Of a DNA stretch of 64,000 bases, positions 15,112-59,302 are shown one piece after another. Location of the stretch: the NCBI GenBank assembly GCA_027339965.1, contig DAHWNL010000078.1, forward strand, positions 64,001-128,000, in the 5' to 3' direction. Position numbers and translations under genes: made by a program. Position 1 is the first letter of the stretch. Each line of letters opens with the position of its first letter. This stretch comes from Granulicella sp. (GTDB lineage Bacteria; Acidobacteriota; Terriglobia; Terriglobales; Acidobacteriaceae). The notes under the pieces were generated by a model, which was not told the DNA's origin, ran no database searches, and was given only the letters and a program-made list of their open reading frames with translations.

Positions 15112-15257
15112 CGGGACCGCTGCTGACCTCAGCCAAGGATCCGCCTATTCCTCGGTACCATCCAGACACAGGCGAGGATGCCGGCCAGTGCGACCGATCT
15201 CTCTACCGGACCTTCGATCTCTAGCCGCTAAGTTTTTTGTGCTCTAATAGAGTTGTT

Positions 15258-15344
15258 GGCTTGATGGCGGAATCGGCATACGCGGTGGTCTCAAAAACCA
15301 TTGGGAGCAATCCCGTGTGGGTTCAAGTCCCACTCAAGCCACCA
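15258..15344 (+). tRNA. tRNA-Leu(CAA)
   Basis: Acceptor stem GGCTTGA/TCAAGCC, discriminator A plus CCA, anticodon loop CTCAAAA, long variable arm, T loop GTTCAAGTC. Confidence 0.93.
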
Positions 15345-16657: not shown

Positions 16658-18862
16658 CTACGACTCCATGATGACTGCCGCTGAACGCGGTGGAATTCGA
16701 AGCGAACCGCTGAAGGACTTGGCGTCTGGCTCCTCGGGTGTGGCAAAGACAAGCTTGCCCGCGTTGGGCAAGTCCAACGTAACGGTAACCGACTTTGTCT
16801 GTTCGAGACTGGCGACGACAACCGCGCGCTGGCCTCCTGAACGGCGAAAGACCGTGTAGCGGACCTTTCCGTCGGCAGGCACGTTGGCTCCAAGATTGTC
16901 GCGGAACTCGGCATCCCAGACCCATGCTTGATACCTTTTACGCAAAGCATCCACCTTTTTGCCGTACTCCAGCGTGAGCGGGAAATCTGTGATGTGTCCT
17001 TTGAAGTGATAAGGTTCGTACTCCATGATGTAGCGATAGAGCAGGCACAGGTTGATCTCATCCCGGGCGTTGAAGCCGCGGACAGCCGCCATGAGCGGGG
17101 CTTGCGGATCAATGTAGCGCAGAGCGTGAACCGTGCCCCAATTGATGCGGTAGTAGCCAAGCACATAGTATGGCATCAGCCAGTCGCCTGGTCCCTCCCC
17201 GGAGAAGAGAAAATCTTCGCCATTGGCGGCGCCGCCGGGCAGGAAGTAGTTGGAAGGGGTGTTGACTGCGGCCTGACGGAACTGCCTGGCGAGCGGGATA
17301 TCTGCATTGAAAAGATAGCCGGGCGGGTTATAGCCGTGATCGGCGCTGAAGTTATAGATCACGCCATTGTGTTGCATCACTTCGTCGAAAAGCCAGCCGG
17401 CAGCACCAAGCTTGACCGTCTTTTCAAACTCGTGCGTTGCAATGTCGCGGTACTCCTGGCAACAGACATCCATGATGGCCCTGCGGCGGTTGTTGATTCC
17501 AGCCAGTTGGACTGGCGTGGTGTAGCTGTAGCCACCCGCCTCGTACTTGTCGCCGTAAGGGTCCGTGCACTCGTACTTATAAAGAACTTCCTTGTACCAG
17601 GATCTGGAGATCGCGGCAAAGATGGGCTTGCCAAACAGGATGATCTTGACTCCCATGGCCTGAATCTTTGCAATCGCATCGTGAAGCTGCTCCCAGGTAC
17701 CGAGGCCAGGATCCGTGGAAAGATCGGGATCCCCTCCATCCTGGCCTCCGTAAGCCCAGCCGACGACTTGGATGGCGCGCACGCCGTTCTCTGCGCACTC
17801 CTTGCCGTAGTGCACAAGATCCGTATAGGGGACCAGGTAGTCCTGCTCCGCTCCATCCACGCGTAGTTGTTGCCAGGAGTGAACTTCTTTCACCCAGGCT
17901 GGAATAGGCGGCCTGCCGAACCATGTGGCGCGCCACTGCTTGTAAATGTCCAGGCCGGCGTGCCAGTCACCCGAATAGGGGCGCACCACGATGGGCGCGA
18001 GATGGAAGGAGGATTTAGGATGCGCAAAGACGAAGTGGCAGGGTCTGAATTCAAGATGCACCGGGATCCCGGAGATATCATCGGTGCGTGGAACGGCGTT
18101 GGCATTCGCATCCACCACGCCCGGAAGCTGGGAGAAGATAAATTGCAGGAAATAGCGGATCTCAGGGTCTTTCATGACCACGTACATGCCCTGCTGGGGT
18201 GACTGAATCAGGCAGAACTGGCTTTGAAATGCGCCCGTGTTGATGATCTTGGTGGGGTAACGATCGCCCCAATAGCCCAGGTTATTTGCAAAGCTGGGAT
18301 AAAGTTCCTGGGTCTGCAAAGCACCGACGAACATGGAATGCGCCAGCATCGCTGCGTTGGGCATGGGCGGAGTCAGATCCCCGAAGTAGGGATACTCGAC
18401 GGTATCAACGCTCAGATCCGACTGATTGTCAACCACACCATCAAACACAAGTTCCCCACTTTGCAGCGTCACGGTTGCTGTGAAGGTAATCGGTAGCACG
18501 CCTGCATGCTCACTGAGCAAATCTGTCCATTGGATCTGGACTCGGTTGTGAGCGATCTTCTCCACACGCTGGGCGCGTTGCTTGTGTCCGAGGACAAAGT
18601 TGTCGCTGCGTTCCGGCAGGGGAACCATCATGCGAAAAGAAGCACCGAGAGCAGGACGCCGCTCAATGGACCATTTGGTGGACTTGCGCTGCATCCGGGT
18701 GAGTGCGCCGGAGCGGGGATTGAATGCCAGGATCACCTCCGCGTCTTCGAGCACAACCTCGCCGCTGGCGGCAGCATCCTGCGCCACACTTGCGTTGTCA
18801 ACTTCGGCCAGAGCAGCCAGCGCGGTAAAGCCAGCCAGTTTATGAAACGCTCTACGATCCAT
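16658..18862 (-). CDS. Tat-exported putative glycoside hydrolase (DUF6259-like TIM barrel)
   Basis: Twin-arginine signal MDRRAFHKL; YSGDWHAGLDIYKQW, IQVVGW..GGQD, LGAAGWLFDE and FSGEG motifs of GH-type barrels. Confidence 0.65.
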   Translation of the reverse strand: MDRRAFHKLAGFTALAALAEVDNASVAQDAAASGEVVLEDAEVILAFNPRSGALTRMQRKSTKWSIERRPALGASFRMMVPLPERSDNFVLGHKQRAQRVEKIAHNRVQIQWTDLLSEHAGVLPITFTATVTLQSGELVFDGVVDNQSDLSVDTVEYPYFGDLTPPMPNAAMLAHSMFVGALQTQELYPSFANNLGYWGDRYPTKIINTGAFQSQFCLIQSPQQGMYVVMKDPEIRYFLQFIFSQLPGVVDANANAVPRTDDISGIPVHLEFRPCHFVFAHPKSSFHLAPIVVRPYSGDWHAGLDIYKQWRATWFGRPPIPAWVKEVHSWQQLRVDGAEQDYLVPYTDLVHYGKECAENGVRAIQVVGWAYGGQDGGDPDLSTDPGLGTWEQLHDAIAKIQAMGVKIILFGKPIFAAISRSWYKEVLYKYECTDPYGDKYEAGGYSYTTPVQLAGINNRRRAIMDVCCQEYRDIATHEFEKTVKLGAAGWLFDEVMQHNGVIYNFSADHGYNPPGYLFNADIPLARQFRQAAVNTPSNYFLPGGAANGEDFLFSGEGPGDWLMPYYVLGYYRINWGTVHALRYIDPQAPLMAAVRGFNARDEINLCLLYRYIMEYEPYHFKGHITDFPLTLEYGKKVDALRKRYQAWVWDAEFRDNLGANVPADGKVRYTVFRRSGGQRAVVVASLEQTKSVTVTLDLPNAGKLVFATPEEPDAKSFSGSLRIPPRSAAVIMES

Positions 18863-19293
18863 TGCATTCTCCGTTTCGGGATGTCTATCCATGTCGGCGA
18901 CCCGCTGGGCGTTGCCTGCTCATTCAAGAGACCGGTTTTCTCAGGCTTGCTTGGCGTTCTGGTTGCACCACGTTGCACAGCTCGCAATCAAGCTTAGCCC
19001 AAGCAACCGCAACCTGATTTGAGCCCTGTTCAGGGGTCCGCAAACACCCTTCCAATGTCGAGGGAGCATGCCAGGCGCGGCGACGCAAAAAAGAGATGGC
19101 TGGTTGTGGATCGCGATGGAGAGAATCTCTGAAAATGGGCTCTCTGGAGAGAAACCTGTCGACACAGACCTCAAGAAGCATCTCTTGGAAGGCTTCCTGC
19201 GCTCCAGTGGACATCCAAACACGCACCCTCCAGCGTTCTTTGCTGAAAAGAGAAGCAGGCATAGGGCGCTGACCCGTGAGGTGGAGGAACAAC

Positions 19294-19323
19294 TTGCAAT
19301 AATCGCTTCCAATCGATTATACG
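19294..19323 (+). promoter_or_regulatory. putative sigma70 promoter of the MFS gene with overlapping CAATCGAT motif
   Basis: TTGCAA-N18-TATACG; the spacer contains AATCGCT and CAATCGAT. Confidence 0.45.
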
Positions 19324-19518
19324 TGGAGCAGGAATCTGTGATCGAGTGCAGGTCCAGCTACCGCCCGGGCACAAGTGCGAGCACGGCAAGAAGCCGAATC
19401 ACAACACGCCATGCCGCTTTTGACGTAACCTTCTCGAAACGACCAACCCGCCTGAACGGATGGCTTTTGCGACCGGAAGCATCCTGCGGGCAGATCAATC
19501 AGAACGGAAGCTCGCAAT

Positions 19519-20784
19519 TTGGCCACTAGAACCCCGGTTGAAGAACATACCGCGCCTCCTCCCCAGGCTCATGTCCAACGCTGGACGATTCTCTCGCTGC
19601 TCTTTGCGATCACGGTGATCAATATCATCGATCGTCAGACGGTGTCCGTATTGGCGCCCCTGATCAAGGCTGCCTTCCACCTCTCCGACGAAGCCTACGG
19701 GCGGATCGTCGCCGCTTTTCAATTCGGCATGATGAGCGGCGAACTGCCCATGGGACAATTGATGGACCAATGGGGATGCCGCATCGGCATGTGCGCCGCG
19801 GTTTGCTGGTGGTCGATGTGTACAGGCTCGCAGGCGTTCGTTCGCACTGGGATGCAGCTCGGCCTGTCACGGCTGGGAATGGGCGGAACCGAGTGCGGCA
19901 ATTTCTCCGGCGGGATGAAAGCCGTATCCGAGACCTTCCAAGAAAAGGAACGCACCTTCGCCATCGGCATCTTCAACAGTGGCAGTGTGGTTGGCGCCGT
20001 GATTGCCCCACCATTGATCGTCTTTCTGGTACAGCACTATGGGTTCCGCGCCGCATTTTTTGTTCCCGCATTGCTCGGGTTGATCTGGGTGGTGCTTTGG
20101 TGGTTCACCTACCCAAGCCATCGCGGCAAAGAGGTGCGGGAGAACGAGGCGCCAAAGACGCCCCTGAAGGCGCTGCTCGGCAACTCGTCTACATGGGCAG
20201 TGGTGCTCTGCCGAGCCTTCGTTGGCCCCGTGATTCAGTTTTACTGGTATTGGTTGCCCAGCTACCTTTACAGCGCGCGGCACATGACGATGACGCAGAT
20301 CGGCACCCTCTCCTGGATTCCCTTCTTCCTGGGCAGTGTCGGCGGCGTCGCCGGAGGGTGGGCAGCCGGTTGGCTGCAGCGGCGCGGAGCGACCCCACCC
20401 CTCGTTCGCAAACTCACCATGTACTTCAGCAGTATCCTTTGCCTGGCCAGTTTTCTCGTGCCGCTTGTGGCAGGGCCTATGCTGGCGCTCACTCTGATCA
20501 GCGTCGCCATCTTCGGACACAACTTTCTCTCGGTAAACATGTTTGGCGCAATTACGGATCTGTTTAGCGGCGCAGAAGTGGGACGGGCAACCGGAATGAG
20601 TGGCGTTGCAAGCGGACTGACCGGCCTGCTGTTTCCCCTACTCACCGGTTATCTCGTGGATCATGGCTCCTATCGGTCTGTCTTCATGATGGCGGCTCTG
20701 ATGCCGTTGATTGGAACCGTTGCGCTGTTTGTCCTGGCTCGGAAGTACCGGAGGATGACCGGAGATCAGAGAGTGCACGTCTGA
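19519..20784 (+). CDS. MFS transporter (ExuT/anion:cation symporter type), candidate sulfosugar importer
   Basis: INIIDRQTVSVLAP, ERTFAIGIFNSGSVVGAVIAPP, FYWYWLPSYL; about 12 TM helices. Confidence 0.85.
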   Translation: MATRTPVEEHTAPPPQAHVQRWTILSLLFAITVINIIDRQTVSVLAPLIKAAFHLSDEAYGRIVAAFQFGMMSGELPMGQLMDQWGCRIGMCAAVCWWSMCTGSQAFVRTGMQLGLSRLGMGGTECGNFSGGMKAVSETFQEKERTFAIGIFNSGSVVGAVIAPPLIVFLVQHYGFRAAFFVPALLGLIWVVLWWFTYPSHRGKEVRENEAPKTPLKALLGNSSTWAVVLCRAFVGPVIQFYWYWLPSYLYSARHMTMTQIGTLSWIPFFLGSVGGVAGGWAAGWLQRRGATPPLVRKLTMYFSSILCLASFLVPLVAGPMLALTLISVAIFGHNFLSVNMFGAITDLFSGAEVGRATGMSGVASGLTGLLFPLLTGYLVDHGSYRSVFMMAALMPLIGTVALFVLARKYRRMTGDQRVHV

Positions 20785-20813
20785 GTTGGAAGACCTCCGG
20801 GGTGAGAGATGCT

Positions 20814-21857
20814 TCAACTGTGAGAGATGCTTTCAAGAACACGCGACGATCCGGCTGGCTTGACGCTGCACCTGTCTTGCCACGGAGTGGCGGCCTCAAG
20901 CACTTTGTTTACCTTGCTTATATTCTCCGCGCCCTCCGTTTCCAGCCATGCACGTAGCGCCGTAGGGCCTTGCTGCACAAAGATAGGAACGCCACCTTGC
21001 CAGGTGGCGCGGCCACACAGCACTCCGTGGAACTCAACGCCGCTTTCCAGCGCGAACTCCAACCCTTCAATGAAAGCGCTATTGGGCACGCCCGCCGAGA
21101 GATAAACGAACGGTTTGGTGGAGGCAGCCGCAGCTCGGCGGAAGTGTTCAGCCGCTTCGGCCCGCGAATAGGCTTGCTGACCCGTGTAGACCTGCATGCC
21201 AGGAACGGACTGCATGCGGACCGGGAACTCCAGCTTGAGCACGTCGGCCCCGTATCGATCCGCAGTGAACTCCTCGATGGAACGAATCACGATCTCCGGC
21301 TTGCGCCTTGCATAGCTTAGAGAGCTTTCTTCCTCGCCGACGCCATACGCGAGCAGCTCCAGAAACAGGGGCATATCCAGGGCACGGCACTCAGCGCCGA
21401 TTCGCTCGACCCAGGCCTTCTTCTGTTCATTCACCCAGCCATCCGCAAACGGCGAATAGAAGAGGAGGATCTTCACGGCGGCGGCACCTGCTTCGCGCAG
21501 ACGCAGCACCGACCATCCTTCTGTCAGACTAGGTAAAAAATCCGGGGCCGTAAAGTCATAGCCGGATTTCTCATAAGCCAGCATGGCTCCTTTCCCGTTG
21601 CGGTGCCCCAGTGCCGGCAAACCAAACTCTACATCCAGCAGGATGGCCGATGCGTGACGCGTAAGCGCCTCGGTGACAATCTCCTTGAACTCGGAGACCA
21701 TGGCATCGGTCGGTTCGCCGGCCTGCATTTCCTTAGCCATCATCTTTTTCAGCAATCCGCGCTGGTCGAGTGCAGCCGCCGCAATCACTCCTCGCGGATT
21801 GGCGACAGCCTTGAGGCCGGCAATCTTTCCCTGAGTCAAAACTGAGGTCATCACCAT
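20814..21857 (-). CDS. LacD-family class I aldolase (tagatose-bisphosphate aldolase-like; candidate sulfofructosephosphate aldolase)
   Basis: ALDQRG, ASAILLDVEFG, AYEKSGYD, DVLKLEFP, YLSAGV, GVLCGRATW. Confidence 0.85.
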   Translation of the reverse strand: MVMTSVLTQGKIAGLKAVANPRGVIAAAALDQRGLLKKMMAKEMQAGEPTDAMVSEFKEIVTEALTRHASAILLDVEFGLPALGHRNGKGAMLAYEKSGYDFTAPDFLPSLTEGWSVLRLREAGAAAVKILLFYSPFADGWVNEQKKAWVERIGAECRALDMPLFLELLAYGVGEEESSLSYARRKPEIVIRSIEEFTADRYGADVLKLEFPVRMQSVPGMQVYTGQQAYSRAEAAEHFRRAAAASTKPFVYLSAGVPNSAFIEGLEFALESGVEFHGVLCGRATWQGGVPIFVQQGPTALRAWLETEGAENISKVNKVLEAATPWQDRCSVKPAGSSRVLESISHS

Positions 21858-21917
21858 CTTCTCTCCATTTTCTTAAGGACGCCTCGAGACGGCGAGACGC
21901 CTTGCTTTTAACGGTGC

Positions 21918-22895
21918 CTATCGCACGGGCAGGCGCTGGGGCGTCGCCTGATGGACCGAGCTCAGCGCCGGTCTACCCTCCAGCACTCGAGTGATGTCCT
22001 CGCAGATCGCAACCGTCACCCGACCTTGGGCCTCGTGTGTCCAGGCTCCAACATGTGGCATCAGAATCACATTTGGCATCGACTCCAGCTCTCCCTGCTG
22101 GGGCGGCTCAGTGGCCCGAACATCCAGCGCCGCGCCGGCTAATCTCCCGGATTTGAGTGCAGCCAGCAGATCCGGCTCCGATACGACCTTCCCGCGCGAT
22201 GTATTGATGAAGTAGGAGCCGGGCTTCATCCTTTCAAAGCAGGCGAAATTCACGAGCCCTGATGTCTGCGGCGAAGCGGGCAGATGGCAGGAGACAATAT
22301 CCGCCCGAGCAAACAACTCCTCCATCGCCACCAATTCGGCCTGAAGATCGGCCAGCAGAACATTGTCCGGGCTGAGGAATGGGTCGCAGGCCAGCACACT
22401 CATGCCGAAAGCCCGGGCGCGGCGAGCCGTGAGATAACCAATTTTCCCGGCGCCAACAATACCCAGCGTCTTGCCATAGAGCTCTGACCCGATAAAGCGG
22501 CGGCGATTCCAGTTTCCGGCCTTGGTGTCCCGGTCGGCAACGGGGATAAAGCGCACCAGGGAGAGCATCAGGCCGAGGGCCAGTTCGGCGACGCTGATTG
22601 CGTTCTGATCCGGCGTGAAGGCCACCACAATGCCGGCTTGACGGGCATACTCCACATCCACATTGTCCAGCCCCACTCCGGCACGCCCGATCACGAGTAG
22701 CTGGGGGGCTGCATCGATCAACTCGGCCGTCACCGGCGTCTGGTTGCGCACAAGGAGTGCATGGCAACCCCTGATCTTGTCAATCAGAAGCTGCGGCGAC
22801 TTCCATGCGTCCGGCAGATAGAGCACGTCAAATCGGCTGCGGAGTGCGTCTACAGCAGATCCTTCAATAGCCTCTGATATCAGAATGTCGGGCAT
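21918..22895 (-). CDS. slcC: D-2-hydroxyacid dehydrogenase, SlcC-like (S)-sulfolactate dehydrogenase
   Basis: MPDILISE, LLVRNQT, GRAGVGLDNVD, GAGKIG, NTSRG, PHVGA; no ACT domain; adjacent to comC/suyAB. Confidence 0.7.
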   Translation of the reverse strand: MPDILISEAIEGSAVDALRSRFDVLYLPDAWKSPQLLIDKIRGCHALLVRNQTPVTAELIDAAPQLLVIGRAGVGLDNVDVEYARQAGIVVAFTPDQNAISVAELALGLMLSLVRFIPVADRDTKAGNWNRRRFIGSELYGKTLGIVGAGKIGYLTARRARAFGMSVLACDPFLSPDNVLLADLQAELVAMEELFARADIVSCHLPASPQTSGLVNFACFERMKPGSYFINTSRGKVVSEPDLLAALKSGRLAGAALDVRATEPPQQGELESMPNVILMPHVGAWTHEAQGRVTVAICEDITRVLEGRPALSSVHQATPQRLPVR

Positions 22896-23950
22896 GCGTT
22901 CACCTCGGGACAGTCGAATGCAACCTTCAGTTGCCGGCACCAGTGTTCCAATTCCGCAATCGTCTCCGGCGCAAGGGGAATGCCGTGCGACTGGTTTTGC
23001 TCAGCGATGCGCGCGGAGCGCTCTCCAGGAAGCAGAATTTCGCTCACTCCGTTGCGTCTCCTCGACGACTTGATCTGGCCAATGGTTTCGTCCATCCGCT
23101 GTAGATACTCCTCGTAGTCCAGGAAGGCGGAGATGTCGAACAGACAGAAAAAATGACCGACATTCTGTGGGCGATCCAGGTTCTTGTACATAGAGCCCAC
23201 CTGGGAACCAATCGCAGCTCCGGAGAGAACTCCGCTGAACATCTCCACCATCAAGGCCAGCGCATAGCCCTTGTGGCCGGCCATGGTAAGAACCGTGCCC
23301 AGCAAGGCTGCCTGGGCATCGGTGGTGGGCTCTCCCTGCGGGTCGAGCGCCCAGCCCTCTGGAATCGGTTGATTGCGCCTCTGAGCGGCAATGATGTTGC
23401 CGCGAGCCACGATCGAGGTAGCCAGATCAATCTTCACCGGAAAGCTCCGGCGCGTGGGGAAAGAGGCGGCGATGGGATTGGTGCCGAAGAAAGGCTCGTA
23501 GCCGCCTGCGGGCGACATGGCTGGCTCGCAGTTGGTCATCGCCAGCAGCACCATGCCATGCTCCGCCGCTGCATTGCAGTACCAGGAGAGCGCGCCGAAG
23601 TGCTGCGAGTTGCGGATGGTAGCCGCGGCTACCCCGTTCCGCCGCGCCAAAGGGATCAGGCGATCCAGCGCCTTCCGCGCCTGCACCTGCCCAAGTCCAT
23701 TACCTGCATTCAGCGCCAGCACACTTTCGGCTCCGCGATCTGCGGTGAGCGGCGCTGCGGGGTCAATCAATCCCTCCTGTATGCGACGCAAATAGATGCT
23801 GAGGCGCGAGACTCCATGCGTCGAAACGCCATGCAGATCGGCATCGACCAGCGCACTCGCAAACAAAGCTGCGTCCTGCGCCGGCACGCCGATGGCAACG
23901 GCAAGCTGCGCGACAAGGCGCTCCAGCGTTTCCTTTCGATATCGCTCCAT
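22880..23950 (-). CDS. comC: Ldh_2-family oxidoreductase, ComC-like (R)-sulfolactate dehydrogenase
   Basis: DADLHGVSTHGVSRL, NSQHFGA, GTNPIA, DLATS, GHKGYAL, LPGE. Confidence 0.72.
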   Translation of the reverse strand: MERYRKETLERLVAQLAVAIGVPAQDAALFASALVDADLHGVSTHGVSRLSIYLRRIQEGLIDPAAPLTADRGAESVLALNAGNGLGQVQARKALDRLIPLARRNGVAAATIRNSQHFGALSWYCNAAAEHGMVLLAMTNCEPAMSPAGGYEPFFGTNPIAASFPTRRSFPVKIDLATSIVARGNIIAAQRRNQPIPEGWALDPQGEPTTDAQAALLGTVLTMAGHKGYALALMVEMFSGVLSGAAIGSQVGSMYKNLDRPQNVGHFFCLFDISAFLDYEEYLQRMDETIGQIKSSRRRNGVSEILLPGERSARIAEQNQSHGIPLAPETIAELEHWCRQLKVAFDCPEVNACPTF

Positions 23951-23970
23951 ACACTCCTGCCCGAGAACCT

Positions 23971-24007
23971 GCGCCGAGGCTCAGTTCAGTGAACTGAGCC
24001 TCGGCGC
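23971..24007. repeat. long perfect inverted repeat between suyB and comC
   Basis: GCGCCGAGGCTCAGTTCA-G-TGAACTGAGCCTCGGCGC (18-bp arms). Confidence 0.9.
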
Positions 24008-24020
24008 GTTGAAAGACGAA

Positions 24021-25184
24021 TCAGGCGCTGCGATAGAGCTTGGTCATCACAAACTCGCGATGGCCGAGCGCCTCCGCCGCCGTGAGCCTGCCGTTGGCCG
24101 TACGAACAATCATCTCGATGAGAGCGTCTCCGGCCTGGTCGAGCGTCATCTCTCCCTGCAAAATCGGAGCCACGTCCAGGTCGATGTGCTCCTTCATTGT
24201 GGCGACGGTCTTGGGATTCCCGGACAGCTTGATGACCGGTTCAATGGGATTGCCGATGACGTTGCCCTGACCGGTCGGGAAAAGGTGGACGACCGCGCCC
24301 GAAGCAGCCCACAGCGTCACCGCCTCCGCCGCAGCGCTGGAGGTGTCCATGAACCACATGCCGGCCTTGGTCGGGGCTTCTGCCGGCTTAAGACACCCAA
24401 TAAACTTGGTCTTCTTGCCCAGCTTTTCCACGTTACCCAGCGCCTTCTCTTCAATGGTCGAGAGTCCGCCGGCGATATTCCCCTTGGTCGGCTGCGACTC
24501 AGAAAGATCATCGGTCTTCTCACTGAACACCAGACGCGTGTAATCTTCGAAAGCCGCCATGAACTGCTTGCGCACCTCTTCATTGGCCGCTTTGGCGGCT
24601 ACGATGTGCTCTGCGCCGGTCAACTCGCTCGTTTCACCGAAAGAGGCCGTCCCGCCGAGCGCGCAGTGTTTGTCCAGAACATTGCCGACAGTGGGGCAAC
24701 TGGCCAGGCCGGTGGTGGTGTCGGACTCCCCGCACTTCACGCTGATATACAGTTCGCTCAGCCTGCACTCCGCGCGCTGCAGCTCGGAAGCCCACTGAAC
24801 AAACTCCTTTGCTTTGTAGGACGCATCGGCGATGGTGCGTATATCGCCCTGGCCTTCGATCCAGTATCCCTCCACCGGCTTGCCGGTCTTCGCAATGCCG
24901 TCCACGATGCGCTTGGTCCAACCCGCCTCAATGCCGATGACCACCACGGCTGCAACGTTCGGATTGCTGCCGATACCGATCATGGTGCGAAAGAATAACT
25001 CAAGATCTTCGCCAAACTGCAGCCGGCCGTAGGCGTGCGGCAGGGCGAGCGTTCCCTTGATATTGTTGGCAACTGCCTCGCAGGCGGCGTTGGAGATATC
25101 GTCCACCGGCAGGATGACGACATGGTTGCGGATTCCTACCCGCCCGTTTTCCCGTCGAAATGCGTGAATCTTTCGGTCTGTCAT
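24021..25184 (-). CDS. suyB: (2R)-sulfolactate sulfo-lyase beta subunit (UxaA family)
   Basis: [58 protein letters not shown] and C-terminal [17 protein letters not shown] match SuyB as I recall it, rather than altronate dehydratase. Confidence 0.9.
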
Positions 25185-25187
25185 GAT

Positions 25188-25466
25188 CTACCACCTTTTC
25201 GTCTTCAGGTTATGCACGTGAACATGCTGCCCCGCACGGATGGGCTGCACCACTTTACCAATCTCGCAGCCATACTTGATGGCGGTATCGCCTACGGCAA
25301 AGTCCCGCAGCGCAAATTTGTGTCCGAGCGGAATCGCCTCGGCCGTCTTCGCGGTGAGCGTCTTGTTGGTCGAAAGATTCCGACCGGTACACTCGGCGCC
25401 GGCAGCAAGGTCGGTTACGGCTACCGCAACCGTATCCGCTGAATCGTGAATGAGGAAATGAATCAT
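25188..25466 (-). CDS. suyA: (2R)-sulfolactate sulfo-lyase alpha subunit (SAF domain)
   Basis: HFLIHDSADTVAVAV, IPLGHKFAL, IKYG, HVHVHNLKTKRW; 3 bp from suyB. Confidence 0.88.
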   Translation of the reverse strand: MIHFLIHDSADTVAVAVTDLAAGAECTGRNLSTNKTLTAKTAEAIPLGHKFALRDFAVGDTAIKYGCEIGKVVQPIRAGQHVHVHNLKTKRW

Positions 25467-25496
25467 AGTGTTCGCCTTCTCCTTTCAAGAGCTTTA

Positions 25497-26939
25497 TTAA
25501 AAGACGCCAATCGAAACGTGTTTCGTTTCGAGAAACGCGTCCAGACCCTCGCTGCCCAGCTCACGGCCCCATCCGCTCTGCTTCACCCCACCGAAGGGGC
25601 TCTGGCTGGTGGTGGGCGCGCCGTCGTTGATGCCTAGCGTGCCTGCCTCGATCTGCTCAGCGAGCCGGAAGATGCGCGCCACATCTCTCGTCATGGCATA
25701 GGCGCTCAAGCCATACTCCGAGTGGTTAGCCAACGCAATGGCCTCCTCTTCGCTATCAAAAGCGGCAATCGGCGCGACCGGTGCGAACGTCTCCTCGCGC
25801 ATGCACATGGCGCCCGGGGGAGCGTTATCGATGACCGTCGGCTCCAAAAAGAACCCGGCCGCGCCGGCTGCTCGTTTCCCGCCACAGAGGAGCTCGCCAC
25901 CCAGGCTGACGGCGTTCTCAATCTGGCTGAGCGCGCCCTCCAACGCCTGCTGGTTGATCACCGGGCCGACATCCGCGCCGGACTCCAGTCCTGAACAGAC
26001 CTTCAGCTTCTTCACTCCATCCACAAAACGCTGGATAAACTTGTCGTGAATGGAACGTTGGACGTAGATGCGGTTCGCGGCAATGCAGGATTGACCGGTG
26101 TTGCGGAACTTGGCGATGAGCGTCTCGTGCACCGCTATGTCCAGGTCGCAGTCTTCGAAGACCAGGACAGGAGCCAGTCCGCCCAGTTCCAGAGAGAGCG
26201 GCTTGACCGTCTGCGCTGCGCCGGCAATCAGTTCCCTTCCAACCTCGGTGGAACCGGTGAAGGTGATCTTGCGGCAGATGGGGTTGGCCAGGAATTCCGC
26301 GGAGATCGCCTTTGCATTGCCCAGCACCAACTGGAAGACACCATGCGGAACGTCGGCGCTCTCCACGCACTCCGCAAAGGCGATCGCGCAAAGCGGAGTT
26401 TGCATCGAGGGCTTCAGGACCACCGGGCAGCCCACCGCCAGCGCGGGCGCCACCTTGCGCACGGCCAACACCAACGGAAAGTTCCACGGAGAGATGGCGC
26501 CAACGACGCCGATGGGAGTCCGCACCACCATGTTGCGGCGGCCATCCGTCTGATGAGGAATGATGCGTCCGTAGACGCGCTTTCCCTCTTCTGCGAACCA
26601 GCGCAGATGCTCCTCGGCCATGGCTACCTCTCCGCGGCTCTGCGCAAGCGGCTTGCCATTCTCCAGCGTGATCGTGCGGGCAATCTCTTCTCGCCGCCGA
26701 GCCAGTTCGTCTGCAACCCGGTTAAGGTAAGCCCCTCTTGCCTTCGCATTCAGAGCTCGCCATGAAGCCAGAACCCGATGCGCATCCTCCAAGGCCGCAG
26801 CCACCTGATCCTGCGTTATCCGCGATACCCGAGCAAACGCCTCGCCTGTCGCAGGATTGATCACGTCAGCGACATCTGCGGTGACTATCCAACGCCCATT
26901 CACATACGACCCGCGCACGTCGCCCGGCTTCTGCTCCAT
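25497..26939 (-). CDS. NAD(P)-dependent aldehyde dehydrogenase (GabD-like; candidate sulfolactaldehyde dehydrogenase)
   Basis: PWNFP, FTGSTEVG, LELGG, KFRNTGQSC, EETFAP, PFGGVKQSG. Confidence 0.85.
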   Translation of the reverse strand: MEQKPGDVRGSYVNGRWIVTADVADVINPATGEAFARVSRITQDQVAAALEDAHRVLASWRALNAKARGAYLNRVADELARRREEIARTITLENGKPLAQSRGEVAMAEEHLRWFAEEGKRVYGRIIPHQTDGRRNMVVRTPIGVVGAISPWNFPLVLAVRKVAPALAVGCPVVLKPSMQTPLCAIAFAECVESADVPHGVFQLVLGNAKAISAEFLANPICRKITFTGSTEVGRELIAGAAQTVKPLSLELGGLAPVLVFEDCDLDIAVHETLIAKFRNTGQSCIAANRIYVQRSIHDKFIQRFVDGVKKLKVCSGLESGADVGPVINQQALEGALSQIENAVSLGGELLCGGKRAAGAAGFFLEPTVIDNAPPGAMCMREETFAPVAPIAAFDSEEEAIALANHSEYGLSAYAMTRDVARIFRLAEQIEAGTLGINDGAPTTSQSPFGGVKQSGWGRELGSEGLDAFLETKHVSIGVF

Positions 26940-26955
26940 CTTGGCCCTCTCTTCT

Positions 26956-27609
26956 TCAGTCCACCCACTTGGGAACAAACTTTCCCTGACGCGCCTGCGA
27001 ATCGATCATCTTGGCCGCTTCCGCCACATGATGCCGGGCCAGCCGCTCCGCGCTATCGGGCTGATTTTTCTCAATTGCAGTGATAATCGCCAGGTGCTCA
27101 TCGTGGATCGTTCGCGGCTCGCGCGAAGCGCGCACCATCATGCCCAAAACTCGGTAGGTCTCCGCCAGACGCGTCAAGATCTTGTTTCGCGATAACTCCG
27201 TGATATGTAGATGAAAATCGCGATCAAGCCGGCCCATCGCTTCTTCCTTGCCCTTCTTGGCCAGCTGATAGATCTCATCGGCCATCTCTCGCAGGGTAGC
27301 GATGTCGGCAGGAGCCACGTTGCCACAACCCAGCCGGGCAGCCAATCCCTCCAGCGCTTCGCGAACCTGATAGGCCTGGCAGATGCGATTGGCATCCAGG
27401 CTCCCTACAAATACCCCCAACTGATCCACCGATTCGACCAGACCGAGCCTCTGCAGTTCAAACAGGGATTCGCGAACCGTACCCTGTGCGACCCCCAGCT
27501 CCCGAGCCAGACTCTGCTGGCTGAGACGCTCCCCGGGCTTCGATTCCCCGGACAGAATCCGGCGCTGGATCTCTTGACGAACGTGATGACGCGCTACACG
27601 TGCAGGCAT
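26956..27609 (-). CDS. GntR/FadR-family (FCD) transcriptional regulator
   Basis: GESKPGERLSQQSLARELGVAQGTVRESL HTH; LDRDFH and EHLAII FCD motifs. Confidence 0.9.
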   Translation of the reverse strand: MPARVARHHVRQEIQRRILSGESKPGERLSQQSLARELGVAQGTVRESLFELQRLGLVESVDQLGVFVGSLDANRICQAYQVREALEGLAARLGCGNVAPADIATLREMADEIYQLAKKGKEEAMGRLDRDFHLHITELSRNKILTRLAETYRVLGMMVRASREPRTIHDEHLAIITAIEKNQPDSAERLARHHVAEAAKMIDSQARQGKFVPKWVD

Positions 27610-27819
27610 TGGGTCTCCCTTTTCATTCGGCTGATTTTGGACCTGTGCAATAAAGAGAAGTCAGGCTCTGCTCTGGGAGGTTTGCCAACTCCACCAGGAC
27701 GCCACCCGGTCCATTGTGTAACTCTGTTTTGCGTAACTCCGTTTGCCACTCCATGATTCCGATGCGTCTTGCTGGTTGCTGCGGCCTATCTCCCCATCAG
27801 CTTCTGGTCATAAACTATC

Positions 27820-27837
27820 ACAATCGATAATCGCTAT
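27820..27837. promoter_or_regulatory. putative operator upstream of gntR
   Basis: ACAATCGATAATCGCTA; same core as at 30551-30569 and 19310-19317. Confidence 0.5.
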
Positions 27838-27864
27838 CATCTTGATTAATGCGCTGTTATCCCA

Positions 27865-29235
27865 TCACTCCCACCATGAAATTCTCAACAATCTGGCTAG
27901 CCGGCGTAAAGTTTCGCGATGGGTTCCAAAGGAGACCAGCACATGATGCGGCAAACCCACATGAAGCAAACGATCAAACCACGAGGGGACATCGACTTCC
28001 CGGATATGGACCAGGGCGGTATTGCCGGTAAGCTTACGGCGTGGCTCCACCGTACGGCCTGCCAACGCTGTCAAATGGTAGCGGTTCTCGCAGCGCCACA
28101 ACCGAAACATCGTTACAGGCTCGTTTGTTCGGATGCGGCCATCTACCACCAGCGGCTTGACGATATTGAAGTGGGGCGCCAGCGCGGGAGCCTCTTCGCA
28201 CCCCGGCCCGTCGCACATATCCATGGGAGCCATACCCGGGTGCCAAAAGAAGATCGACTCCCGGTCGTGCTCCAGCCAGTCGGTAAGAAATCCGGGACCC
28301 GCTCCAATCAAAAGGCTGATCAAACTGCTGAGAGCCCCATCCACATCGCCTTCGATCGCTACGGCGCGCCCCTCTGTGCTGAGCCGCGAAACGGCCAGAT
28401 ACGGCCACTGCCCAAGCAGATTCGGCAGCTCAGGCCAGCATTGGAGGGCCAAAGCGTCAAGCCTCTCCTCTTCCATTAAATCTCGCATGGCCAGGTAGTA
28501 GCGCGAGTTCATCGCCAGATCCTCTGCCACCACGCCGCGCAGAGGCAGCTTCATCTCCTGCACCTTCTGGACATCGCGAAGAACTGCTTGCTCAGGTAGC
28601 TCTCGGACGCGCTCAATAAACTGCGGCAGGCTGAGCGGACAAAGCTGGGAGCCAATCGCTTGACGCAGGAGAAACGGCTCTACCGCCAGATCAATGAAAC
28701 CCGGAACGTGCGTCCCCACCAGACCGACACGGCTGCGGCGGAGGCGGAAGGCGGCGCGCGCCAGCATGACCGCCCTTGCCAGATCCTCACGTACAGCGCC
28801 GTCATCGGGATCACCGTAAACGAACTCCAAGGGATGTCCTACCTGCCGCAGAGAAGACGCCCAGAGATGCTGCCCAACCAAAGAACAGGAGCTCACCTTC
28901 CCATCGCCAGGCCGCTCCGGCGTCGCCCAAAGAATCACCGGATCAGGCCACCGCTGGGACAGCGTAAGAGCCAGTTGTCCATGGGCAATCGAGGGCTGCA
29001 GCAGCAGAAGCACCTCACATCCGGCCCGCTGAACCTCCTCCAAAGCGGCAACGGTCGTCATCTCGTCCACGACCGGCTTCTCAATCCGCGTCAAGGAATA
29101 GCCCAGATGCTCCAAGATGTCCAGGCAGCGTGCCGTCATCATCTGATTCCACTCCTGGTCAAACCCAGGGCGCTTGCGGCCCACAGAGATGACCCCCAGA
29201 CGGATGAACTTTCGATCTTCAAGATTGGATGACAT
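27865..29235 (-). CDS. L-fucose/L-arabinose isomerase-like protein (candidate sulfoquinovose isomerase)
   Basis: ILWATPE, SCSLVG, ALALQCWPEL, IEGDVDGA, FWHPG and GLPHH motifs of FucI/AraA-like isomerases. Confidence 0.75.
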   Translation of the reverse strand: MSSNLEDRKFIRLGVISVGRKRPGFDQEWNQMMTARCLDILEHLGYSLTRIEKPVVDEMTTVAALEEVQRAGCEVLLLLQPSIAHGQLALTLSQRWPDPVILWATPERPGDGKVSSCSLVGQHLWASSLRQVGHPLEFVYGDPDDGAVREDLARAVMLARAAFRLRRSRVGLVGTHVPGFIDLAVEPFLLRQAIGSQLCPLSLPQFIERVRELPEQAVLRDVQKVQEMKLPLRGVVAEDLAMNSRYYLAMRDLMEEERLDALALQCWPELPNLLGQWPYLAVSRLSTEGRAVAIEGDVDGALSSLISLLIGAGPGFLTDWLEHDRESIFFWHPGMAPMDMCDGPGCEEAPALAPHFNIVKPLVVDGRIRTNEPVTMFRLWRCENRYHLTALAGRTVEPRRKLTGNTALVHIREVDVPSWFDRLLHVGLPHHVLVSFGTHRETLRRLARLLRISWWE

Positions 29236-30460
29236 GTTTCCTCTCTTCTTCGGAATCGGTCTTCCGAGAGCTTGGCGGATAATCCGGCAATGTGATCTCA
29301 GGATGGGAGTCCAACTGTCCGATTAACGGCCGGATGTACTCGAAATATGGCTCCCCAAGTGGAACGTCGCCATCTCGAATCCACTCCTCAGGGATTGGAC
29401 GCTCGATGCCCGCAACCTCGATCAGCGGAACGAGATCGTATCTTCCGGTCTCGGTGCTCTGCAGCGGCCGCAGCGATACCATCCGCTCGGAGACTCCGGC
29501 AAGCACAGCCTGCACTCCCGCTCGGCCTACCAGCTCCGCATCCGCACGATCCTGGCTCGCAACATGTTGCATCGACGATCGCCCCAGCAGGCCGGGCTTT
29601 TCGCTTCGGCAGCGCAACTTGAGATGCTGGGCCACCCGATCGGCCAGGTACTGCGCAACTCCCCCCGTAATGGATCGCTTCAGTGCGTCAGCCTGAGCCG
29701 GATCCTCTACCTCATAGACCATGCGCCCCCGCGCGTCGCGAAGACCTTCCGCAGCTACGACCACACACCACCCGCTCCGCGTCACGCAGCCGTCCACCCG
29801 CGCCAAAAATTGATCCAGCACCAAAGGCCTTTCCGGCAGAAGAACGATATGCGGGGCTTCGTCCTCATCTTGCTTGGTTGCTGCAGCCGCAGCCGCCAGC
29901 CATCCTACGCTGCGTCCCATCGTCTCAAGGATTGAGACGGGCTGCGGCATGGAGCGAACGTCCGCCGCAAGGTCGCAGGTCGCCTGGGCGATGTACCGGG
30001 CGGCGCTTGCATAACCCGGGGAGCGGTTCGTCCTCTCCAGATCATTGTCCACCGTCTTCGGCACGCCAACAATCCGAATCACTCGGCCTGCCTTCCGGGC
30101 GCAATCGGCGAGCAGACCTGCGGCATGCATGGTTCCATTCCCTCCAATTACCAGAACGTCACTCACCCGCAGGCGTTCCAGGTGCCGTACGATCGCTGTA
30201 AGATCCTCTGCCTTCAACGGATAGCGAGATGCACCCAAGGTTGCTCCGGGCGAGCCTCGCAGGACGCGAAGATCTTGTAGGGAAAGACCGGTCAAGTCAG
30301 CCACTTGCCCCTGAGCTAGTCCTCTCATAGCCGAGCGGGCACCCAGGATTCGCCGGAAGGCCCCTGATCCGCGCGCTTCTTCCACAATGGATGCCAGTGT
30401 GGCATTCAGTACCGGCGTGGGTCCACCGGCCTGCACCACCAAGATGTTGCGCTCCGCCAT
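29219..30460 (-). CDS. PfkA-family phosphofructokinase (candidate sulfofructose kinase)
   Basis: QAGGPTPVLN, LGASR, IGGNGT, PKTVDNDL, ETMGRSVGWL, LLPE. Confidence 0.85.
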   Translation of the reverse strand: MAERNILVVQAGGPTPVLNATLASIVEEARGSGAFRRILGARSAMRGLAQGQVADLTGLSLQDLRVLRGSPGATLGASRYPLKAEDLTAIVRHLERLRVSDVLVIGGNGTMHAAGLLADCARKAGRVIRIVGVPKTVDNDLERTNRSPGYASAARYIAQATCDLAADVRSMPQPVSILETMGRSVGWLAAAAAATKQDEDEAPHIVLLPERPLVLDQFLARVDGCVTRSGWCVVVAAEGLRDARGRMVYEVEDPAQADALKRSITGGVAQYLADRVAQHLKLRCRSEKPGLLGRSSMQHVASQDRADAELVGRAGVQAVLAGVSERMVSLRPLQSTETGRYDLVPLIEVAGIERPIPEEWIRDGDVPLGEPYFEYIRPLIGQLDSHPEITLPDYPPSSRKTDSEEERKHVIQS

Positions 30461-30542
30461 GTGGGCTTTGCCTCCGCTGCGCTAAAGGCCCCTGATGTTA
30501 TCTTTAAAGAGCCGAAGAAAGTTGAAGTAGCACGTTTCGGCA

Positions 30543-30572
30543 AGACTATGATCGATTGTTATCGATTGTCAA
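30543..30572 (-). promoter_or_regulatory. sigma70 promoter of the sulfoglycolytic operon with tandem ACAATCGAT operator
   Basis: Minus strand TTGACA-N18-TAGTCT; ACAATCGAT occurs twice at a 10-bp period, overlapping the -35 box and the spacer. Confidence 0.7.
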
Positions 30573-30982: not shown

Positions 30983-32026
30983 TTACGGAGGACCGGCGAC
31001 CAGTCTACCGCCGACTCCACAACCACAGGATTGCCGAATCACCAGACGGGCCTGTAAAACGATCCTCCGGGAAGGCAAGGCGTGATCGCCCTTGAGTCGC
31101 TCAAAGAGCAGCCGCGCACTCTCCCTGCCCAGAGAGTCAGAAGGCTGCTGCACAACCGACAGTCCCGGCGTCAGCATCTCGCCCAGATCGAAATCGTCAA
31201 AGGAAATCAACGCGATGTCACGGCCAGCGGAGATCCCCAGATCGCGAAGGCCTCGCAGAACATGCTGCGTAGTGACCCAATTCAAGGAAAAGATGGCCTC
31301 CGCTGTTTCTCCTCGGAACATCTCCTCTTCCAGCCATTTTGCGGTCAACAAACTTTCATGCTTGACGAAGCACTCTCTCGCCTCTAAGCCCGATTGAGCC
31401 ATGCTCCTGCGATATCCCGCTACGCGTTCTTTCGAAGTGTAAAGATAGGGCCGCGTACCGACCGCGACAATCCTTCGATACCCGTGGGCAATCATATGCT
31501 TCGTCGCCTCAGAGGCGCTTTGGCGGTTGGTGATGATGACGGAGTCAAAGTCAGTGCCGCGGACAAGTTGGTCGAACGTCACGGTGGGGATATTCGCCGG
31601 CAACAGATGACTTGACAGTCTTGGACCGCTGCTCGCCGGGGCAATGATCAAGCCGTCAATTCTGCGCCGTACGAGACTTTCAATCTCAGCGCTCTCTACC
31701 TCCGGCTGGCCTTCTGAGCTTGTGATGATGAGGACATAGCCGTTCGCGCGCGCGACCTGCTGAACGGCTTTGATCACCTCGATCACAAATGGATTTGCAA
31801 GGTTGGCGACAATAATACCGATTGTGCCTGATTTACGCGTCATCAGGCTCCGAGCCAGCTCATTCGGGCGGTAGCCTAGCCGCGCCATAACGGCCTGGAC
31901 TTTGCTTACCTTTTCCTGGCGGACGTTCGATGCCCCATTCAGAACGCGCGAAGCGGTTTTGAGAGAGACGCGCGCCTCACGAGCAACATCTGCCAGGGTG
32001 GGCGCCCGCTTGTTCCGTATAGGCAT
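30983..32026 (-). CDS. LacI-family transcriptional regulator
   Basis: PTLADVAREARVSLKTASRVLN, YRPNELARSL, ISFDD. Confidence 0.93.
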   Translation of the reverse strand: MPIRNKRAPTLADVAREARVSLKTASRVLNGASNVRQEKVSKVQAVMARLGYRPNELARSLMTRKSGTIGIIVANLANPFVIEVIKAVQQVARANGYVLIITSSEGQPEVESAEIESLVRRRIDGLIIAPASSGPRLSSHLLPANIPTVTFDQLVRGTDFDSVIITNRQSASEATKHMIAHGYRRIVAVGTRPYLYTSKERVAGYRRSMAQSGLEARECFVKHESLLTAKWLEEEMFRGETAEAIFSLNWVTTQHVLRGLRDLGISAGRDIALISFDDFDLGEMLTPGLSVVQQPSDSLGRESARLLFERLKGDHALPSRRIVLQARLVIRQSCGCGVGGRLVAGPP

Positions 32027-32286
32027 CTCGTTTTTACCCATCTCCCAGCTTGCCACATCCCAGCCCAGCATCCATGCTGCGCTTCTTTCAAATCCGGCTG
32101 CCAGAGCAAAGCCTTTTGTCCGTCAACAGGCTAGCACAAGAAAGATCAACGACATCGCAAACGATCTTCGTCCAACAAATTACCTGACTCCTGTCAGACT
32201 GAAATGCTTCTTTGCGGACTTGCGGGCACCCTGTGACACGCCATCAAGGAACGGAAGTCAGTACGAAAGGCTTTGAAAGTTCTATC

Positions 32287-32343
32287 TTGACAAACGCAAC
32301 GCTGGCTGCATAGCATTTTGTCGGATTCGTGACAGCGCTGTCA
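32287..32343 (+). promoter_or_regulatory. sigma70 promoter plus LacI-type operator for the TonB-receptor operon
   Basis: TTGACA (32287)-N18-TAGCAT, followed by the perfect palindrome TGACAGCGCTGTCA (32330-32343) with the LacI-type central GCGC. Confidence 0.8.
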
Positions 32344-32610
32344 ATCTTATTTGACGGACAAAGCTCCTCTCTCCCGGAGAAGAAATAAGGAGGGTGAGTT
32401 TTTCGCAACTGCCTCATCAGCGCAAGACCGTTTTGACCCATTCGCGCAAGCCGGGTGGCCTTGCTGAACGACCATCCTTCGCCCGGGAAGGCTAGCGGTC
32501 TGTGAATACCCGAGGATTCCCCCTGAGGCTTCTCCTTCAGAGTTCTCAGGGGTCTGTATGAGAAATCTCAATGCCGGGCAAGCGCGGCAGGGGGCCGTAG
32601 GAGGAACACA

Positions 32611-36111: not shown

Positions 36112-36359
36112 CCAGGAACAAACGGGCCAATCCGCCGGCTGGAGATCATGAATCTAAGGCCATGCGGGCACCAAACGTCGGGCACATCAACTCGTCTTGA
36201 AGGAAAAAGGAACGGATTCTCGTTCTCTTCCCGGGAGGGTCAACCGTAACGCTTAGCGGAAGTACATTCAATCCGCTGCGCGTCAATTGCCGTGCTGATC
36301 ATCTGCCGCATCTTTCAAGTTTTTGCTTACCCGCTTCATCTGCTCCGAGGATCGACACC

Positions 36360-40860: not shown

Positions 40861-40880
40861 CCGGGGCAGACAGGAACAAG

Positions 40881-58800: not shown

Positions 58801-58807
58801 GCCAACT

Positions 58808-59299: not shown

Positions 59300-59302
59300 A
59301 AG

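Follow-up and report, generated by a model that had tools for sequence, protein, structure and literature searches.

Analysis of a 64,000-nucleotide stretch of a Granulicella sp. genome (assembly GCA_027339965.1, contig DAHWNL010000078.1, positions 64,001 to 128,000; the whole stretch is referred to as the window) identified, at positions 16658 to 30572, a gene cluster that in our judgement probably forms a GntR-repressed regulon leading from free sulfoquinovose (SQ) to dihydroxyacetone phosphate (DHAP), pyruvate and sulfite in one cell. The cluster is real, conserved and co-regulated, and most likely leads from a sulfosugar to sulfite; the observations on which this view is based are gene content, synteny, the identity of the SuyAB pair, residue changes and a shared palindrome. 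The splitting of SQ and the release of its sulfur are usually divided between two species. The cluster offers a defined and testable set of eight enzymes for SQ catabolism by one organism, in a phylum abundant in soils and wetlands.

In the proposed pathway, for which every enzyme activity, SQ as the sugar, the use of ATP, the binding of GntR and the fate of sulfite are predicted from sequence, a transporter of the major facilitator superfamily (MFS) would import SQ, a FucI-family isomerase would convert it to sulfofructose, and a PfkA-family kinase would use ATP to form sulfofructose-1-phosphate. A LacD-type class I aldolase, apparently duplicated from a housekeeping copy and altered in its C6 pocket, would then yield DHAP and (S)-sulfolactaldehyde. 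The latter would be oxidised to (S)-sulfolactate by an aldehyde dehydrogenase (ALDH), inverted via sulfopyruvate to (R)-sulfolactate by SlcC and ComC, and cleaved by SuyAB to pyruvate and sulfite, so that all six SQ carbons would enter central metabolism. This logic, from a 6-sulfohexose to pyruvate and sulfite in one cell, had been put forward in a preliminary description of the window, and it stands, with support from gene context, active-site changes and the shared operator.

Gene content, regulation and conservation

Nine minus-strand genes, an MFS gene and a DUF6259 gene were all found as intact open reading frames (ORFs) at the coordinates first given, and a profile scan placed the named genes in the Pfam families stated for them (suyA was identified by BLAST instead), which confirms the gene content of the preliminary description. 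Genes within the minus-strand run are separated by -17 to 70 bp, except for 255 bp before gntR. The MFS gene lies on the plus strand, convergent with this run, and the DUF6259 gene is divergent from it. A TTGACA -35 box begins at 30572, the end coordinate first assigned to the cluster. The source genome is 98.9% complete, and the closest related loci are titled Acidobacteriota. The features are as follows.

29219..30460, minus strand: PfkA-family kinase of the PRK14072 subfamily, candidate SqiK-like sulfofructose kinase (Pfam PFK).
27865..29235, minus strand: FucI/AraA-family aldose-ketose isomerase, candidate for SQ to sulfofructose (Fucose_iso_C, weak, 24.9 bits, below cut-off).
26956..27609, minus strand: GntR/FCD regulator, probable cluster repressor (Pfam; predicted to bind the palindrome).
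25497..26939, minus strand: aldehyde dehydrogenase of the GabD/SlaB type, candidate sulfolactaldehyde dehydrogenase (Aldedh; Cys285, Glu251, Arg161, Arg279).
25188..25466, minus strand: SuyA, predicted small subunit of (R)-sulfolactate sulfo-lyase, 92 aa (BLAST).
24021..25184, minus strand: SuyB, predicted large subunit of (R)-sulfolactate sulfo-lyase, 387 aa (GD_AH, SuyB/UxaA).
22880..23950, minus strand: Ldh_2-family dehydrogenase, by position a ComC-like (R)-sulfolactate dehydrogenase (Ldh_2).
21918..22895, minus strand: D-2-hydroxyacid dehydrogenase, by position an SlcC-like (S)-sulfolactate dehydrogenase (2-Hacid_dh).
20814..21857, minus strand: class I aldolase, paralogue of the housekeeping LacD type, candidate sulfofructose-1-phosphate aldolase (DeoC/LacD; Lys208 and Arg283 kept; Ser to Leu35, Lys to Gln287).
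19519..20784, plus strand: MFS transporter of the galactonate/hexuronate (anion) type, candidate sulfosugar importer (profile scan).
16658..18892, minus strand: DUF6259 protein with a twin-arginine-like leader and a GH129/GH36/GH101-like fold (profile scan and predicted structure).
30545..30572, minus strand: sigma-70-type promoter of the kinase-isomerase operon, TTGACA, 16 bp, CATAGT (10/12 match).
30555-30572 and 30545-30562, minus strand: tandem ATCGAT-centred operator-like sites overlapping the kinase promoter (matrix scan).
27817..27834, no strand: operator-like palindrome upstream of gntR (matrix scan).
19306..19323, no strand: operator-like palindrome about 200 bp upstream of the MFS gene and about 410 bp from the DUF6259 start (matrix scan).

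Taken alone, the TTGACA-16-CATAGT match is weak (the promoter scan returned 3 sites, against 5.2 in shuffled sequences). The ATCGAT core is present within 250 bp upstream of the kinase gene in 29 of 32 distant loci and upstream of lacD in 18 of 20; the counts for the other genes were 10/30 for gntR, 3/19 for MFS, 3/30 for suyB and 0/33 for the isomerase, and 0.11 per 300 bp is the background in the genome. A matrix for which only distant relatives served as training set (consensus ATTACAATCGATTGTAAT) placed the window sites 30555, 30545, 19306 and 27817 at ranks 1, 5, 7 and 10 of 1381 ATCGAT sites; an earlier matrix, which included very close relatives, gave ranks 1, 4, 6 and 7. The sites ranked between those of the cluster fall within long ORFs, and no clear operator site was found by the genome matrix scan before a glycosidase or transporter outside the cluster. 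The two top-ranked cluster sites cover the kinase promoter, as expected of a repressor. The GntR/FCD protein is the probable repressor of the cluster via this palindrome, which also appears to tie the MFS gene to the minus-strand run.

The isomerase was present in 20/101 genomes of the genus, 15/301 of the order and 2/401 of the phylum, each count including the source genome. Thirty-two acidobacterial genomes or records, 31 of them found via the isomerase or SuyB and one via lacD, were read around the gene over 6-41 kb each, several being cut by contig ends. Kinase and isomerase genes occurred in 32/32 loci, gntR in 29, suyA and suyB in 28, the ALDH gene in 27, comC and slcC in 26, lacD in 22, the MFS gene in 18 and DUF6259 in 4. 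The combination of kinase, isomerase, suyAB, comC and slcC was found in 26 loci and all eight enzyme genes in 19. Nine further genomes were concordant: five were complete with lacD, three had one gene unseen and in one the genes were scattered over 40 kb. Gene order varies among loci, with lacD and MFS travelling as a module. The arrangement is not due to chance, since other Acidobacteriota hold the same genes as a cluster, rearranged in order and with proteins about 47-99% identical; the locus counts stand for conservation and not for a statistical test, because kin are not independent.

Enzymes of the two halves of the proposed pathway

The split UxaA-family pair measures 92 and 387 aa, the expected SuyAB form being of about 92 and 390 aa, and its large subunit falls in the high-identity SuyB group. 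With the UxaA-family gene in the hpsNOP (2,3-dihydroxypropanesulfonate, DHPS) cluster of Cupriavidus pinatubonensis SuyB shares 68% identity, and with that of Paracoccus versutus 69%; SuyA is 52% and 50% identical to the respective small subunits, and over all the sulfonate-cluster pairs compared the ranges were 68-72% and 50-54%. Among 468 plasmid records matching SuyB, 13 lay at 62-72% and 455 below 60%, the next listed being at about 39%, and the source genome's own full-length UxaA-type gene is 32% identical. The predicted sulfo-lyase SuyAB, named as such in the preliminary description, is well assigned because of these high identities and the gap to other UxaA proteins.

The Ldh_2 and D-2-hydroxyacid dehydrogenase genes follow suyB directly, as expected of a ComC/SlcC pair. 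The best NCBIfam model for the Ldh_2 protein was L-sulfolactate dehydrogenase (266 bits, under the cut-off of 500), and archaeal ComC was its second-best match among solved structures. The ALDH keeps Arg161, Arg279 and the WNF motif, counterparts of Arg171, Arg289 and Trp-Asn-Phe in RlGabD, both arginines of which have been proposed as sulfonate binders (bioRxiv 2023.03.13.532361). Its identity to the ALDH of a spirochaete cluster that contains a sulfoquinovosidase gene (see below) is 56%, compared with at most 38% to its paralogues in the source genome.

The kinase (family PF00365) belongs to the PRK14072 subfamily, whose solved members depend on inorganic pyrophosphate. All 22 cluster kinases carry Gly in the GGNG motif (GGNGT, together with PKTVDND, in the window kinase), and by the GGxG/GGxD rule, which we assume to apply here, the cluster kinase looks like an ATP user. 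At the position which we take to be that of the 6-phosphate ligand His249, occupied by His or Tyr in glycolytic phosphofructokinases (PFKs), it has Leu. The kinase clade as a whole lacks His or Tyr there, and so do the PFKs encoded beside Bacillota SqvD-like genes (5/5), which are 33-40% identical to the kinase. A second PFK, of the housekeeping type, is encoded elsewhere in the source genome.

Tagatose-bisphosphate aldolases are the nearest relatives of the aldolase (E 1e-88), and YihT is distant from it (E 1e-7, 23% identity); no class II aldolase (PF01116, SqiA type) was found in the cluster or in the source genome. YihT orthology, which the preliminary description had raised, was rejected: the protein nests among LacD-type aldolases as a paralogue of the housekeeping one. 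A LacD-type gene occurs in 113 of 121 genomes of the family, nearly always once (this tally includes two unpublished genomes, G1015 and G1030, used in no other claim), and the source genome has a second copy (G000:C10:16615-17595), 59% identical to the cluster aldolase. Because of this near-universal single copy and the lack of a class II aldolase in the search, the housekeeping copy is probably glycolytic and the main fructose-bisphosphate aldolase of the family. The "tagatose" label was consequently rejected as evidence for a galacto sugar, the LacD type being the ordinary aldolase of the family.

Twelve cluster aldolases were aligned with 28 housekeeping ones (the source genome's own and 27 from among the top-scoring loci); one locus omitted from both groups later proved to hold a cluster copy with cluster residues. 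Eleven of the 12, with one further cluster copy, form a branch of their own, and one stands apart on a long branch. After DQRG, Ser is found in 28/28 housekeeping copies and Leu, Met or Ile in 12/12 cluster copies; after GRATW, Lys in 27/28 and Gln in 12/12, respectively. About two dozen other columns also differ between the groups. The two changed positions align with YihT Ala26 (Leu in the cluster aldolase) and Ala257, and the counterparts of YihT Lys193 and Arg253 are kept; Arg253-Ala26(H2O) was named as the sulfonate pocket of YihT (PMC8006165). The changes are consistent with a convergent loss of 6-phosphate contacts, and the enzyme may work like YihT without being YihT.

Identity of the sugar and fate of the sulfite

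As the isomerase forms a separate clade and the aldolase is not a YihT orthologue, SQ is the proposed substrate by inference and not by orthology, and a number of results weigh against it. The isomerase (family PF02952) scored 145 bits on the NCBIfam SftI model, the cut-off of which is 700, and its identity to core SqvD-like proteins is 21-23%. Against eight SqvD-like proteins of Lachnospiraceae it is 20-24%, a level that some unrelated members of the family also reach; its best identity to the SqvD-like set, 32%, is to an outlying member. With acidobacterial, planctomycete and spirochaete proteins it forms a long-branch clade (100% support in the SH-like approximate likelihood ratio test, SH-aLRT), the deeper order of which relative to SqvD was unsettled in both quick trees. 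Orthology to core SqvD/SftI, an assignment to which the preliminary description had looked, is not supported by these data. Bacillota SqvD-like genes scored 405-536 bits on the same model, none above the cut-off, including those beside YihQ; one of them sits with YihQ, a transaldolase and a YihU-like gene.

Further points on the same side concern the other enzymes. The kinase control is unclean, as non-cluster acidobacterial members of its family have Tyr in 6/9 and Thr in 3/9; the loss of phosphate ligands suits any non-phosphorylated C6 and not a sulfonate alone; and the arginine pair of the ALDH also occurs in ordinary succinate-semialdehyde dehydrogenases, so that it is not discriminating. 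With the suyAB-linked ComC and SlcC of Sinorhizobium mexicanum the Ldh_2 and D-2-hydroxyacid proteins share only 34% and 39% identity, for which reason both labels are given on family and position, and a further dehydrogenase of the source genome matches the SlcC-like protein at 44% identity. No GH31 sulfoquinovosidase is encoded in the cluster, and none was matched in the source and four other cluster genomes (0/5) with a true sulfoquinovosidase query, a search run without a positive-control genome; two GH31 genes elsewhere in the source genome lack Gln288, Arg301, Trp304 and Tyr508. Neither a YihR nor an SqvB mutarotase was matched in the source genome or the cluster.

The link of the isomerase clade to SQ comes from its members in other phyla. 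One spirochaete protein (43% identity) is encoded with a transketolase and a CoA ligase. A second (45%; Spirochaetaceae, L113, G064:C72) is accompanied by TauE, an ALDH, a transaldolase, suyAB, a LarA racemase and a gene of family GH31. The GH31 product shares 43% identity with E. coli YihQ and keeps Gln262, Gln288, Arg301, Trp304, Asp405, Asp472 and Tyr508, both catalytic Asp among the residues conserved. This contig appears to tie the clade to SQ, with the reservations that it is a single contig, that the GH31 gene lies about 11 kb from the isomerase, and that the solved Bacillus sulfofructose transaldolase is more distant from the transaldolase of the contig than ordinary transaldolases are, which counts a little against the link. 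Transaldolase and transketolase require fructose-type stereochemistry. Two Planctomycetota members of the clade (L029, L032) have PfkA and a class II aldolase, the layout of the type 2 sulfoglycolytic Embden-Meyerhof-Parnas pathway (sulfo-EMP2), here outside the Bacillota.

The nickel-dependent LarA is a candidate one-enzyme sulfolactate racemase replacing SlcC/ComC in the Spirochaetaceae cluster. Four Bacillota SqvD-like clusters (L096, L097, L098, L111) have an aldehyde:ferredoxin oxidoreductase in place of SlaB, and a ferredoxin-linked oxidation of sulfolactaldehyde is possible there. A divergent M24-peptidase-family gene, not found in the source genome, recurs beside the isomerase in acidobacterial clusters (L175:4510-5640, L182, L183, L187, L207, L208, L212, L034) and, at 28-50% identity, beside SqvD-like genes in 11 Bacillota loci (L096-L100, L102-L107); its product may act on an amino conjugate to free the sulfosugar, or the gene may belong to sulfoglycolysis without having been recognised as such.

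The strongest alternative, which we judge unlikely, is that the same chemistry serves another 6-sulfohexose: sulfofucose (6-deoxy-6-sulfogalactose) via sulfotagatose and its 1-phosphate, sulforhamnose, or an amino or conjugated sulfosugar. The separate isomerase clade fits it, the only solved relatives by sequence being L-arabinose isomerases, enzymes that convert galactose to tagatose; so do the aldolase's nearest relatives, the alpha-galactosidase/GalNAcase-like fold of the DUF6259 neighbour, the lack of a known sulfoquinovosidase linked to the clade in Acidobacteria, and the sulfotagatose EMP route considered in a Paracoccus sulfofucose paper (bioRxiv 2023.08.01.551581). However, the tagatose name is silent on stereochemistry when a single-copy aldolase of the LacD type is the norm in the family, the isomerase clade elsewhere partners transaldolase, transketolase and a GH31 sulfoquinovosidase, and sulfofucose is called rare in that same paper.

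It is still less probable that one regulator governs two functions, the uptake and desulfonation of external sulfolactate beside the use of an ordinary sugar by the kinase, isomerase and aldolase. Hausmann et al. (2018, PMC6018796) placed the corresponding neighbour genes of the peat metagenome-assembled genome (MAG) SbA5 under glycolysis, the tricarboxylic acid cycle and GalNAc use; one genome of the same genus has suyAB-comC with no upper genes within the 20 kb read; and the locus dispersed over 40 kb belongs to a relative of another family. On the other hand, the ALDH between the two halves would have no role if sulfolactate were imported, kinase, isomerase, ALDH and suyAB remain linked across several rearrangements, kinase and aldolase are both altered at the C6 site, and the palindrome is shared. 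A neutral 6-deoxy sugar, degraded in the style of fucose or rhamnose by a lactaldehyde dehydrogenase, two lactate dehydrogenases and the UxaA pair as a sugar-acid dehydratase, would suit the FucI-family isomerase, the lost 6-phosphate ligands (equally consistent with a methyl group) and the lactate dehydrogenases included in the Ldh_2 and D-2-hydroxyacid families, but it is very improbable given that the split pair shares 68-72% identity with SuyB of sulfonate clusters and about 40% or less with other UxaA proteins, and that TauE, LarA and a sulfoquinovosidase partner the isomerase clade elsewhere.

For the SQ pathway proposed here, the description of the cluster as self-contained holds for the free sugar; it does not extend to a GH31 sulfoquinovosidase, a YihR/SqvB mutarotase or a sulfite exporter, none of which is in the cluster (the source genome has a TauE gene on a different contig). 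A role of the DUF6259 protein as the absent sulfoquinovosidase is not supported, the GH31 sulfoquinovosidase fold match being at rank 50 and the gene being linked in 4/32 loci. Its predicted structure (predicted local distance difference test score, pLDDT, 87.9) resembles GH129, GH36 and GH101 at 10-13% identity. As varied glycosidases adjoin the clusters of relatives, it is probably an accessory glycosidase, loosely linked to the cluster.

A Gfo/Idh/MocA oxidoreductase gene, absent from the cluster itself, adjoins several related clusters (L030:1314-3508, L208, L212, L213; also SBA5_30245, PMC6018796) and is weakly like glycoside 3-dehydrogenases; in some loci it has a TIM-barrel partner. Two of these neighbours from related loci gave no match to GH188 structures. 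The oxidoreductase, with or without the TIM-barrel protein, is a candidate NAD-dependent system for cleaving SQ glycosides.

Sulfite respiration was dropped for the source genome, in which no dsrA above the cut-off was found; there, sulfite is probably exported or assimilated. A dsrA above the cut-off was found in 6 of 42 cluster genomes (0/5 in the group including the source, 2/5 and 4/32), two of the six matches being flagged for an internal stop; the baseline in the order is 10/201. Two carriers (G005 and G1132) are the source genome's closest relatives with a full cluster, and some cluster-bearing Acidobacteriota may respire sulfite.

Known systems and the surroundings of the cluster

E. 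coli's sulfo-EMP route (YihS, YihV, YihT, YihU) shares with the proposed pathway the intermediates up to sulfolactaldehyde and a PF01791 class I Schiff-base aldolase. In contrast, the cluster has no homologue of YihS, YihV, YihQ or YihR (the YihS isomerase and the PfkB kinase YihV were matched neither among cluster proteins nor in the source genome), its aldolase is 23% identical to YihT, and in E. coli sulfolactaldehyde is reduced to DHPS, which is then exported. Sulfo-EMP2 of Bacillus urumqiensis (SqvD, SqiK, SqiA, SlaB) and the hybrid sulfo-EMP1/2 clusters (PMC9594981, PMC10665668) likewise use a FucI-family isomerase, a PfkA-family kinase and an ALDH to reach sulfolactate, and a PF01791 class I aldolase is also known from the hybrids. 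Here, unlike sulfo-EMP2, the isomerase belongs to a separate clade, the aldolase derives from the housekeeping LacD type and not from YihT or SqiA, YihQ and SqvB are lacking, and sulfolactate would not be the end product. The cluster is predicted to function like sulfo-EMP2 joined to SlcC/ComC/SuyAB, and by orthology it is a member of neither sulfo-EMP type.

Routes within one cell are already predicted or shown elsewhere. Extended sulfoglycolytic transaldolase (sulfo-TAL) clusters of Thermotogae and Chloroflexi likewise combine sulfoglycolysis with SuyAB and were predicted from gene clusters to use all SQ carbons (PMC9594981); there a transaldolase splits the C6 compound, whereas the Acidobacteriota cluster has a kinase and aldolase, and SlcC/ComC as racemase. 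In Paracoccus wurundjeri Merri a single cell converts a C6 sulfosugar into pyruvate and sulfite, via (S)- and then (R)-sulfolactate, by a sulfofucolytic Entner-Doudoroff (ED) pathway with SlcC/ComC/SuyAB (bioRxiv 2023.08.01.551581, PMC12421959), and its release of sulfite was demonstrated (bioRxiv 2023.08.01.551581). It differs in its substrate, sulfofucose, in showing no growth on SQ, in its oxidative ED upper half and in having no classical SlaB. According to a 2026 FEMS review, SQ catabolism by one organism was undemonstrated beyond oxygenolytic routes (PMC13436972).

The lower half was already known in Acidobacteriota. The Dsr-bearing SbA5 has suyAB-comC-slcC in the same order as here (PMC6018796), and its supplement lists tal, pfkA, ALDH, suyA, suyB, comC, slcC and a second lacD at SBA5_30232-30243, on one scaffold and with transcripts detected. 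In that work the upper genes were assigned to other pathways, as described above, SQ is absent from the preprint text available, and SbA5, which carries genes for sulfite reduction only, was read as a user of external sulfolactate. Judged by the gene names and locus tags given above, the SbA5 scaffold probably holds the same cluster.

The earlier statement that no such system had been described in Acidobacteriota thus fails for suyAB-comC-slcC, published in 2018 (PMC6018796), and holds for its link to the upper sulfo-EMP half, which was not found in print and is what is new here. No paper linking sulfoglycolysis to Acidobacteriota was found in the literature, where supplementary cluster lists (Liu 2020, Liu 2021, bioRxiv preprints) and Denger and Cook 2010 could hold some; the string "Acidobacteri" did not occur in the available text of the sulfosugar papers searched for it (including PMC9594981, PMC12890257, PMC10665668 and PMC13436972).

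If true, the assignment would add, besides a new clade of isomerases, a third origin for sulfofructose-1-phosphate aldolase, both overlooked by surveys based on YihT and SqvD, and the cluster offers a source of sulfite to Dsr-bearing peat Acidobacteria thought to draw on organosulfonates. A wider view is tentative and, to us, rather doubtful as a whole: that soil, peat and sediment Acidobacteriota carry a one-cell sulfo-EMP plus SuyAB pathway with an undescribed SQ-isomerase clade and an aldolase recruited independently from the housekeeping copy, and that members with DsrAB (6/42, and MAG SbA5) respire the released sulfite, taking SQ to sulfide in one organism, which would explain the source of sulfolactate for sulfite-only reducers.

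On the kinase side, the cluster is adjoined by a polysaccharide-use locus (window 30983-43193) with a LacI regulator, a TonB-dependent receptor, a GH3 glucosidase, a six-hairpin glycosidase, a flavin adenine dinucleotide (FAD)-type sugar oxidase and a short-chain dehydrogenase/reductase (SDR); only in a single very close relative were the LacI and receptor genes, at high identity, seen next to the cluster. An arylsulfotransferase (ASST) domain protein is encoded at 13093-15344, 1.5 kb past the DUF6259 gene. Next to it comes tRNA-Leu(CAA) at 15258-15344, which may mark an insertion site at the cluster's left edge; this was not seen in related loci. Judged by sequence appearance, positions 56827-63584 hold an iron-sulfur flavoprotein-like ORF and cytochrome b/c-like membrane ORFs. 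No RNA runs holding this DNA were listed; besides the possible source study, near-identical DNA (97% of words) to window positions 21000-30500 was found in sediment and unlabelled metagenome runs from two studies.

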